In this document: positions 21,090 through 23,087 of the stretch, one piece after another
Layout: the number at the start of each line of letters is the position of its first letter
How positions within the stretch are numbered: position 1 is the stretch's first letter
DNA from: Patescibacteria group bacterium
GTDB taxonomy: Bacteria; Patescibacteriota; Patescibacteriia; UBA9934
Assembly (NCBI GenBank): GCA_038064675.1
Contig: JBBTSM010000001.1
Coordinates: 40,446-104,445 of the forward strand
Reading direction: 5' to 3'
DNA length: 64,000 nt
Position numbers and translations under genes: made by a program
Notes under the pieces: model-generated
Told to the model about the DNA's origin: nothing
Databases searched by the model: none
Seen by the model: the letters and a program-made list of their open reading frames with translations, nothing else

Positions 21090-23087
21090 ATGAATCGTAC
21101 CGCGATTGGTGCATTTTTCCTTGTAGTGTTCGCTGTAGGCGCCGGTGTCCTGTCCTTTCCGAAAGAATGGAATGGTGCAATGGCTGCAATGAAGGACAAG
21201 GTAGGTTTTCACCTTCCGTATGTTCCGGAAAACGACTTTACCCTTGGTTTAGACCTGAAGGGCGGTGCACACTTGGTGTATGAGGCCGACATGTCGTCCA
21301 TCGACGAAGCTGAACGCGAAACCGCGCTTGGTGGAGTGCGCGATGTGGTGGAACGTCGTGTGAACGCATTCGGTGTTGCAGAACCAATTGTCCAAACGAA
21401 CATCGCCGACGGTCACTACCGTGTGTTGGTGGATCTTCCTGGCGTTACCGACGTGAAAGATGCAATTGCGCAGATTGGTGAAACGCCGGTGCTGGCCTTC
21501 CGTACGCCAATTACCGACGTGAGCACCACGCCAACTGCTGAACAGCAGCAGCAAATTGACGACGCGCAGAAGACTGAGCGTGTTGCTGCGCTTGCGGTGA
21601 TGGATCGCGCACTTGCCGGCGAAGACTTTGCAGCGCTCGCAAAAGAATATTCCATTGATGCAACCACTAAGGATATCGGCGGATATGTTGGGTTTGTTGT
21701 TGCCGACGACGCAGAATACGACGGGCTTGTGACACAGTTCGAAAAGGGCCGTACGAAGTTCGGTGTCGTCAATGGCTTGTACGAAGGCACAAGCACAATG
21801 CATATCGTGAAGTACATCAGCAAGAAAACAGAATCTGAGCCACGGATCTCACACATTCTCATTTGTTACGCTGGCGCTCCAAGCTGTACGCAGTCACGAA
21901 CAAAGGAAGAGGCACTCGCGCTTGCAACACAGCTTCAGGCAGAAGCAACAACAAAAAACTTTGCTGATTTGGCAAAAACGAATTCCGACGATGGTGGGAG
22001 CAAGGATGTTGGCGGAGACGTTGGATATGTTACGCGAGGCAAAATGGTGAAGCCATTTGAAGACGCCGCATATGCAACGCGCGATACCAAAATTTCCGCT
22101 GTGGTGGAATCAGAATATGGTTATCATATTTTGTATCGTGTCGGTTCCCGTCCATCACGTAGCTACGAAATTGCGCAGATCGAAATGCCTTGGACGACCG
22201 CATCTGACATTTTGACGGTGGATCCTTGGAAGAATACAGAACTTTCTGGAAAGGATGTGAAGCACGCATCGGTGGCGTTCGATCAGACTACTGGTGCGCC
22301 GTACATCGTGCTCGATTTCAATGAAAACGGTACGCAACTGTTCGGTGAACTCACAAAAGATAATGTTGGAAAAGTCATCGGCATTTTCTTGGACGGTCAG
22401 CCAATCACCACGCCTGTTGTTCAAGAGCCAATCTACGGCGGTCAGGCTTCTATCACTGGAAGCTTCACTATCGCTGAGGCGAAGCTGCTTGCACAGCGGT
22501 TGAACGCTGGAGCATTGCCAGTGCCAATTTCGGTGGTCAGCCAGCAGACTATTGGTCCAGCGCTTGGAACTGCATCGCTTGATCTGAGCGTGAAAGCGGG
22601 CCTCATCGGGTTCCTTCTTGTTGCGCTGTTCGTGATTGGATACTACCGCCTTCCTGGCGTGGTCGCCGTTGGTGCTCTTGGCGTATACGCCTTGATCAAC
22701 TTGGCGCTCTTCAAGATTCTCGGCGTTACCATCACCTTGTCTGGTATTGCTGGATTCATCTTCTCCCTGGGTATTGCGGTGGACGCGAACGTGCTCATCT
22801 TTGAGCGCCTGAAGGAAGAGCTTCGCAATGGTCGCGATCTCCCAACGGCAATGGAGGAAGCCTTCCGCCGTGCATGGCCTTCGATTCGCGACGGTAACGC
22901 AACGACGCTTATCGCGACCGGAATTCTGTACACGATGACATCTGGTTCGGTTCGTGGATTCGCGCTCACCTTGGCGCTTGGTGTGTTCGTGTCGTTGTTC
23001 TGCGCGTTCGTGGTGTCGCGCTTTGTTCTTCGTCGTCTTGCGCGTATGCCAAAACTGCGAAAGTCGTTCTTCTTCCTTGGTCTCTAA
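21090..23087 (+). CDS. secD: Protein translocase subunit SecD with two tandem parvulin-type PPIase domains inserted in the periplasmic P1 region
   Basis: N-terminal TM helix. P1-base motifs [13 protein letters not shown] and [12 protein letters not shown]. C-terminal 6-TM bundle. In between lie two PpiC-like domains (..[9 protein letters not shown].D...GGYVGF.., and HILICYAG...[39 protein letters not shown]...[10 protein letters not shown]). Confidence 0.85.
   Translation: [665 protein letters not shown]

Follow-up and report, generated by a model that had tools for sequence, protein, structure and literature searches.

We analysed a window of 64,000 nucleotides of a Patescibacteria genome (assembly GCA_038064675.1, contig JBBTSM010000001.1, positions 40,446-104,445 of the forward strand; "the window" means this whole stretch and all positions below refer to it) and found that its secD gene encodes a SecD with tandem PpiC/parvulin modules in the periplasmic P1 domain, inserted between the P1 base and the P1 head. 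Profile searches, structure prediction and fold comparison agree on this architecture, which an earlier note made from the letters of this DNA had proposed, and the motifs quoted in that note stand in the open reading frame (ORF) where it had placed them. The insert comprises two members of the parvulin domain family, is predicted to be circularly permuted, and recurs in several versions across Patescibacteria. We consider it likely to act as a foldase or chaperone built into the arm of the SecDF motor.

SecD identity and the retained P1 head

The protein is a genuine SecD of a SecD/SecF pair from Candidatus Uhrbacteria (Patescibacteria, or Candidate Phyla Radiation, CPR), and all defining features of a SecD that are testable in a sequence are present. 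The NCBIfam model for secD (TIGR01129) matched with 359.6 bits (cut-off 244.4), the match being divided in two stretches by the insert. A whole-protein Pfam scan yielded, in this order, Sec_GG (residues 50-69), SecD_1st (84-139), Rotamase_3/Rotamase (two stretches), SecDF_P1_head (381-478) and SecD_SecF_C (480-643), the best Rotamase stretch covering residues 238-349 (Rotamase_3, PF13616, E-value 8e-35; Rotamase, PF00639, E-value 1.4e-27); these are the two families that the earlier note had expected the insert to match. We then used two AlphaFold (AF2) models, one of the full-length protein and one of the insert only (residues 131-392). The full-length model (mean predicted local distance difference test score, pLDDT, 82.9; predicted template modelling score, pTM, 0.44) and the Pfam matches together give the layout of a SecD, with a first transmembrane helix (TM1), a large periplasmic P1 made of base and head, and five C-terminal TM helices; the N-terminal helix (residues 3-22) places all residues up to about 490 outside the cytoplasm. 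Compared with the solved structures 5YHF, 5XAP and 3AQP, this model gave Foldseek E-values of 1e-22 to 1e-25, and the sequence alignment to 3AQP, the SecDF of Thermus thermophilus (TtSecDF), scored 280 bits.

The TM4 aspartate of SecD and an aspartate and an arginine of SecF, which we take to be the essential charged residues of the proton path, are present in the alignment to Thermus. Asp565 of SecD lies in GIAVDANVL, aligned with Thermus GAAVDGNVL, and is invariant in a 40-sequence alignment of the family. SecF, aligned to TtSecDF 457-727, has GYSINDTIVV for Thermus GYSINDSIVV and keeps the arginine (...IARS for ...LSRT). Judged by its sequence, the rest of SecD outside the insert looks functional.

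To place the insert we relied on the same structure. TtSecDF matches residues 43-142 (Thermus 25-120) and 384-660 (Thermus 159-435), so that about 240 residues stand in place of about 38 in Thermus (residues 121-158). The boundaries are a P1-base strand (residues 135-140; GETPVLAFR, Thermus GQRAVLEFR) and the first strand of the P1 head (residue 380). Just before the conserved linker into the head (Table 1), P367 is kept in 111 of the 121 family members aligned. The head itself matches PF22599 (SecDF_P1_head) with 104.8 bits (E-value 3e-30) over profile positions 17-114 of 114, and in canonical SecDs of the same clade the head match also starts at profile position 15-20. Against the isolated Thermus P1 domain (3AQO) the full-length model reached a target-normalised TM-score of 0.75. 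The earlier note had left a choice between an insert that replaces the head and one that augments it; replacement is ruled out by the intact head profile, the Thermus alignment and the fold match with 3AQO, and the insert augments a head that is retained.

Table 1. Positions in the window of secD, its segments and the adjacent genes
Feature	Position	Strand	Basis or details
tgt (queuine tRNA-ribosyltransferase), upstream neighbour	19825..21057	+	Pfam PF01702, E 1e-127
secD ORF with parvulin insert	21090..23087	+	ATG start, 665 aa
N-terminal transmembrane helix, residues 3-22	21096..21155	+	helix 3-22 in AF2 model; topology of solved SecDF
P1 base, N-terminal part, residues 45-140, with GG motif LGLDLKGG and strand GETPVLAFR	21222..21509	+	Sec_GG, SecD_1st; TtSecDF 25-120
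Module 1 body, residues 146-247, alpha1 to beta4 without N-terminal beta1	21525..21830	+	Rotamase_3; AF2 pLDDT 82-96
Parvulin module 2, residues 248-353, complete canonical	21831..22148	+	His255, Asp301, Val311, Met319, Phe323, His346; Cys259/Cys266
Trailing strand, residues 354-368, putative module 1 beta1	22149..22193	+	AF2 strands; sequence of relatives; permutation tests
Linker into head, residues 369-380	22194..22229	+	T369, T370, D373, P379, W380 invariant in 40-sequence alignment
P1 head subdomain, residues 381-480, kept whole	22230..22529	+	PF22599; TtSecDF 159-260
P1-base return strand and TM2-TM6, residues 481-652, including GIAVDANVL with Asp565	22530..23045	+	SecD_SecF_C; 3AQP alignment
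secF, SecD partner subunit	23092..23994	+	TIGR00966, 262.7 bits; start 4 nt past secD stop codon

The two parvulin modules and their connectivity

To score the modules separately, we scanned parts of the insert against Rotamase_3 and Rotamase, using the Pfam gathering cut-offs of 22.5 and 21.7 bits respectively. Residues 251-365, scanned alone, yielded 91.7 bits across the whole Rotamase_3 profile and 77.5 bits for Rotamase. The order of elements in module 2 is canonical (beta1-alpha1-alpha2-alpha3-beta2-alpha4-beta3-beta4), and its alignment to Pin1 pairs His255 with H59, Asp301 with C113, Val311 with L122, Met319 with M130, Phe323 with F134 and His346 with H157, which gives the catalytic set together with the Leu-Met-Phe pocket and agrees with the earlier description of this module as a textbook parvulin; the position of Pin1 C113 is Asp in many parvulins. 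Among proteins of solved structure, archaeal parvulins and PrsA domains come closest to it in sequence. Across the 121 family sequences H255, H346, F323, G309 and G344 are each invariant (121/121). Position 301 has D in 103 sequences and E in another 16, 112 sequences have L at position 311, and position 319 is mostly M (80) or T (36). The basic phosphate loop of Pin1 is missing. Because the Pin1-type residue set is kept and this loop is not, module 2 looks like an active, non-phospho-specific parvulin.

A separate observation concerns the loop past beta1 of module 2, which carries Cys259 and Cys266 in a Cys-x6-Cys pair (CYAGAPSC, 21864-21887). The pair is found in 119/121 two-module SecDs and is absent in one-module variants, and it may form an extracytoplasmic disulfide.

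Module 1 is more divergent. Residues 140-250, scanned alone, exceeded both cut-offs (Rotamase_3, 35.5 bits; Rotamase, 28.4 bits), with the Rotamase_3 match limited to profile positions 31-115, and the module departs from the canonical order in that its match begins only at position 31. Its catalytic set is partial: D190 and H238 are each present in 112 of 121 sequences, the pocket residues are replaced, and a conserved DDxEYxGL occupies the site of the M..F proline pocket. The mean identity of homologues to the window protein is 62% in module 1, 61% in module 2, 69% in the trailing strand with the linker and 74-77% in the SecD core, and a 40-sequence alignment shows both insert junctions to be conserved. 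This family-wide conservation indicates that the whole insert is under purifying selection and that module 1 is not decaying. The earlier wording for module 1, a degenerate copy, is therefore apt as far as divergence and the partial catalytic set go, but misses that the module is conserved like module 2 and apparently permuted. Module 1 is most likely a binding or docking module, by analogy with the first parvulin domain (P1) of SurA, or possibly an enzyme of altered specificity.

The insert-only AF2 model (pLDDT 90.5, pTM 0.66) agrees with the full-length model on the secondary structure of the insert, in which the four-stranded antiparallel sheet packed by helices of the parvulin fold is found. 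In both, the base strand 135-140 is followed by a long helix spanning 150-175 and a pair of short ones, then by strand 199-203, helix 213-219 and strand 225-232. Next come a strand that runs without a break from 236 to 258, the canonical parvulin helices and strands, a second such strand at 344-367, and finally the head. In the fold comparison the full-length model, besides matching SecDF structures, resembles SurA over 238 columns. The NCBIfam models for PrsA and SurA give secondary matches within the insert, that for SurA spanning residues 150-363.

How the strands pair was derived from DSSP strings together with sequence tests. On this basis, the paired beta1 and beta4 would be 250-258 (ISHILICY) and 344-352 (YGYHILYRV) in module 2; in module 1, beta4 (236-247) would pair with beta1 (about 355-367). 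Relatives provide the sequence evidence. In the homologue L011 (46% identical) the trailing strand reads YKVSHILIKT, a textbook parvulin beta1, and among the relatives the corresponding strand is ASHILFKT or VSHILIKT; when the L011 strand was put before module 1, the Pfam score rose by 3.4-4.7 bits and the match reached profile position 1. Relatives with a single module are openly permuted (LEFKE-alpha1...FGYHIIKK-acidic linker-ASHILFKT-head), and Pfam matches to them begin at profile position 10 or 28. For 112 such one-module relatives we moved the strand to the front, resulting in a mean gain of 5.0 bits (gain in 107 of the 112), with the profile match now starting at position 3 instead of 22; when the strand was shuffled, the score changed by -0.1 bits. 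In the 121 two-module sequences H255 and H346 are both invariant, while H238 and position 363 (His in 99 of the 121, within AHIEM; Gln in the window protein) are both variable, a pattern by pairs which fits one active site per pair (H255 with H346, and H238 with 363).

From the models and these tests, the insert is predicted to consist of two circularly permuted parvulin units in tandem, each in the order alpha1...beta4-beta1; this is the same as a permuted parvulin with a canonical one nested inside it. In this arrangement beta4 of module 1 continues directly as beta1 of module 2, and beta4 of module 2 continues into the trailing strand, which would complete the sheet of module 1. That the two permuted units simply follow one another and fold separately is not favoured, since both AF2 models show unbroken strands of 23-24 residues. 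The SecD strand GETPVLAFR was also considered as beta1 of module 1 and rejected: adding residues 125-142 did not lengthen the Pfam match, and the strand is the conserved SecD base strand.

Distribution across Patescibacteria

We performed three homologue searches and listed 120 matches of each. All matches listed carry the parvulin-insert architecture and come from independent assemblies, with some contigs longer than 1 Mb. In one of the searches, the best 120 clusters at the 90% identity level, 58-94% identical to the query, all have the same Pfam set; they are drawn from NCBI, JGI, ENA, MGnify and Logan assemblies, with some contigs of 0.3-1.1 Mb. A scan of GTDB genome contigs with single-protein patterns yielded 12 GTDB species representatives that encode the complete architecture, the most distant (L011) at 46% identity; past L012 its hits were mostly unrelated stand-alone parvulins.

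To survey SecD architectures across the lineage, a check that the earlier note had proposed, we searched 1.84 billion representatives of 50%-identity clusters and scanned the best 150 with hidden Markov models (HMMs) built from the parvulin-SecD family. A parvulin between P1 base and head, in all forms, was found in 67 of these 150 clusters. The gap had the size of one module in 11 clusters and of two modules in 34 (10 of them fused to SecF), the insert was larger in 14, and 8 were N-terminally truncated. A canonical SecD with a gap of fewer than 80 residues accounted for 70 clusters, and 9 had another insert without a parvulin match. Two modules occur in Uhrbacteria, the named homologues being 'SecD' of Candidatus Uhrbacteria or of 'Patescibacteria group'; one module occurs in Veblenbacteria, Kerfeldbacteria, Nomurabacteria and 'Patescibacteria group'; and fused SecDF proteins with the insert come from Peregrinibacteria and Abawacabacteria. 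The insert was absent from the non-CPR SecDs recovered alongside (Victivallales, Chthoniobacterales). Parvulin-SecD is common across Patescibacteria, whether with one module, with two or in a fused SecDF.

Two observations stand apart from this survey. Eleven 50%-cluster representatives (P0181, P0182, P0191-P0194, P0219, P0221, P0223, P0226 and P0234) are SecD variants of about 775-940 aa, whose insert of at least 290 residues holds one recognised parvulin each plus 150-200 residues without a Pfam match. Three metagenome-assembled genomes titled 'uncultured Gammaproteobacteria bacterium' (L003, L009, L010) encode an Uhrbacteria-type SecD with 55-92% identity and the same neighbours, and their titles are probably mislabelled.

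The source annotations all read plainly 'SecD', 'SecF' or 'SecD/SecF fusion'. In the full-text literature searched (subscription-only papers not covered) we found no description of a SecD-parvulin fusion, in line with the earlier note, which had not recognised the architecture as a described one, and no paper that combined 'parvulin' with 'circular permutation'. The component domains are known and their combination is visible in databases; the SecD-parvulin architecture itself seems to be undescribed.

Proposed function and genomic context

The P1 head of SecDF has an amphiphilic cavity and cross-links to precursor proteins, and it swings between a membrane-facing and an upright position under proton flow, drawing the chain from SecYEG (PMC5974789). 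E. coli SurA binds the Sec holotranslocon, and AlphaFold consistently put its P1 and P2 parvulins on the P1 head of SecDF (PMC9987972). The Sec translocon of Mycoplasma pneumoniae is topped by a dome of PrsA-like Mdp proteins, which cross-link to SecD. By analogy with these systems, we consider it likely (probability about 0.7) that the insert is a built-in foldase or chaperone of the PrsA/SurA/PpiD kind on the SecDF arm. The P1 head would capture the unfolded chain leaving SecYEG and swing under the proton-motive force; the parvulin pair, sitting at the junction of base and head, would move with the arm, and the chain held by the head would be presented to module 2 as prolyl isomerase and to the adjoining module 1 for binding. 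Xaa-Pro bonds of the emerging chain would be isomerised by module 2, and module 1 would most likely bind substrate or serve for docking in the manner of SurA P1. Being covalently part of SecD, the foldase would stay at the exit site in 1:1 stoichiometry, and a separate anchored foldase could be dispensed with, which would suit genomes of about 1 Mb.

Comparison with known systems sets the protein apart from each of them. Canonical SecD/SecDF proteins (3AQP/5YHF; 5XAP of Deinococcus radiodurans; E. coli SecD) share TM1, P1 base, P1 head, TM2-6, the conserved D-regions, the TM4 aspartate and the secF partner, but their base-head segment has about 38 residues (fewer than 80 in canonical relatives) instead of about 240 with two parvulin folds. 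SurA of E. coli and Salmonella has tandem parvulins as well (P1/P2), yet it is soluble, whereas the insert is anchored in a membrane motor and its module 1 is apparently permuted; the Pfam scan of SecD (E-value up to 0.1) returned SecD and Rotamase families only, with no SurA N/C chaperone core or SurA_N-type domain. CPR bacteria are presumably monoderm and so, unlike the hosts of SurA, have no pathway of outer-membrane proteins and the BAM complex to serve. In PrsA, itself a separate dimeric lipoprotein, an NC chaperone domain hosts the parvulin; SecD P1 takes that place here, and an NC domain was not detected. In the PpiD-YfgM complex at the lateral gate of E. coli SecYEG, PpiD is likewise separate: it carries a TM anchor and chaperone domains of its own, has an inactive parvulin and binds SecY rather than forming part of SecD. 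The M. pneumoniae dome (Mdp436/444/489) likewise stations PrsA-like peptidyl-prolyl isomerases (PPIases) over SecYEG-SecDF, with Mpn444 cross-linking to SecD, and is alike in that a folding device is fixed at the exit site in a genome-reduced bacterium; it is non-covalent, however, and made of large lipoproteins with SurA-like and PPIC domains, whereas here the PPIase lies within the SecD polypeptide. The protein is therefore outside the SurA/PrsA/PpiD family, as it lacks a flanking chaperone domain and its modules are covalently part of SecD; the likeness lies in the parvulin modules and the presumed job.

Several points weigh against the foldase reading. The pTM of 0.44 of the full-length model makes any placement of the parvulins against the head cavity and SecYEG tentative. 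The parvulin of PpiD and SurA P1 are inactive despite their fold, and conserved residues alone are no proof of catalysis. On the structural side, the pairing of 236-247 with about 355-367 is a reading of DSSP strings and sequence tests, and re-permuting module 1 of the window protein itself brought no Pfam gain (35.3 versus 35.5 bits), probably because of Gln363. The scan for other parvulins covered the 64-kb window and found none besides those of the secD insert.

In the strongest competing account, the parvulins are non-catalytic and serve as a holdase or an enlarged substrate platform for the P1 head (compare the PpiD parvulin and SurA P1), or as a docking site. We give it a real but clearly smaller chance than a foldase, as module 2 has all six Pin1-equivalent residues, three of them invariant in 121 sequences, and one-module relatives retain the full residue set; such conservation would be needless for a mere binding surface. 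A role in cis is improbable. On this account the insert would either serve as a structural spacer or act as a prolyl switch on hinge prolines of SecD itself (EMPW...DPW), and would tune or time the swing of the P1 head instead of folding substrates; it does lie exactly at the base-to-head connection, and the flanking linker is strongly conserved, including P367 and P379, the latter without exception among the 40 aligned sequences. The literature searched offered no precedent, however, and the number of modules varies among relatives (one, two, larger) while head and linker stay constant, which fits an add-on module for handling clients better than a tuned hinge. An assembly or annotation artefact that wrongly joined a prsA-like gene to secD, the alternative raised in the earlier note, has next to no chance of being right: the insert lies inside the gene, and the reading frame of SecD continues on either side of it; the 120 matches listed for each search, from independent assemblies, share the architecture, as do the 12 GTDB representatives; and both junctions are conserved in sequence.

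A wider proposal extends the foldase reading, and we hold it only tentatively, as somewhat less probable than its opposite. It states that a permuted parvulin is an integral part of SecD/SecDF across Patescibacteria, combining pulling by the proton-motive force with prolyl folding in one polypeptide; that it is the main or only extracytoplasmic foldase of the lineage; that the fusion shows contact between P1 head and parvulin to be functional and ancient; and that this is the first natural circular permutation of a parvulin described. If true, it would provide a natural 'Rosetta-stone' fusion for the contact of the P1 head with SurA- or PrsA-like proteins in other bacteria. The handover from Sec to folding factors is still debated, the evidence so far coming from weak, transient complexes (SurA-holotranslocon, PpiD-YfgM, the Mycoplasma dome). 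A natural and widespread covalent fusion of the moving arm of SecD with a parvulin that looks catalytically competent adds independent evidence from evolution that the P1 head shares substrate and place with a prolyl isomerase or chaperone. Parvulin-SecD would also offer a single-chain system for structural and biochemical study of how translocation and folding are coupled, would bear on how ultra-small CPR bacteria maintain envelope proteostasis with few genes, and would illustrate clearly that the parvulin fold can be circularly permuted; database entries named just 'SecD', of which there are thousands, are open to more precise annotation.

In the window, secD lies in the classical operon order tgt-secD-secF, which is kept in loci L001-L006. 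The gene yajC, present in the E. coli order tgt-yajC-secD-secF, is absent between tgt and secD, where the gap (21058-21089) is 32 nt only. Downstream (23092-28646) secF is followed by a gene for a 496-aa membrane protein without a Pfam match (orf496, 24375-25865), one for a VirD4/TrwB-like type IV coupling protein (T4CP, 25872-27863) and uppP (27873-28646). The order secD-secF-orf496-T4CP is kept in Uhrbacteria loci L001-L010, down to 55% SecD identity, with a uppP match downstream in 7 of these 10 loci.

Elsewhere in the window, positions 3217-9410 (up to about 12400) have a low GC content (0.41-0.46, versus about 0.52 in the rest of the window) and a strong GC skew. This stretch encodes a 979-aa protein without a Pfam match (3981-6920), a MazG-like protein (7023-7379), a helicase of the Schlafen-group-3/DUF2075 type (7382-8938), a YgjP-like metallopeptidase (9411-9965) and a UvrD helicase (10221-12401), and is possibly an acquired or defence island.

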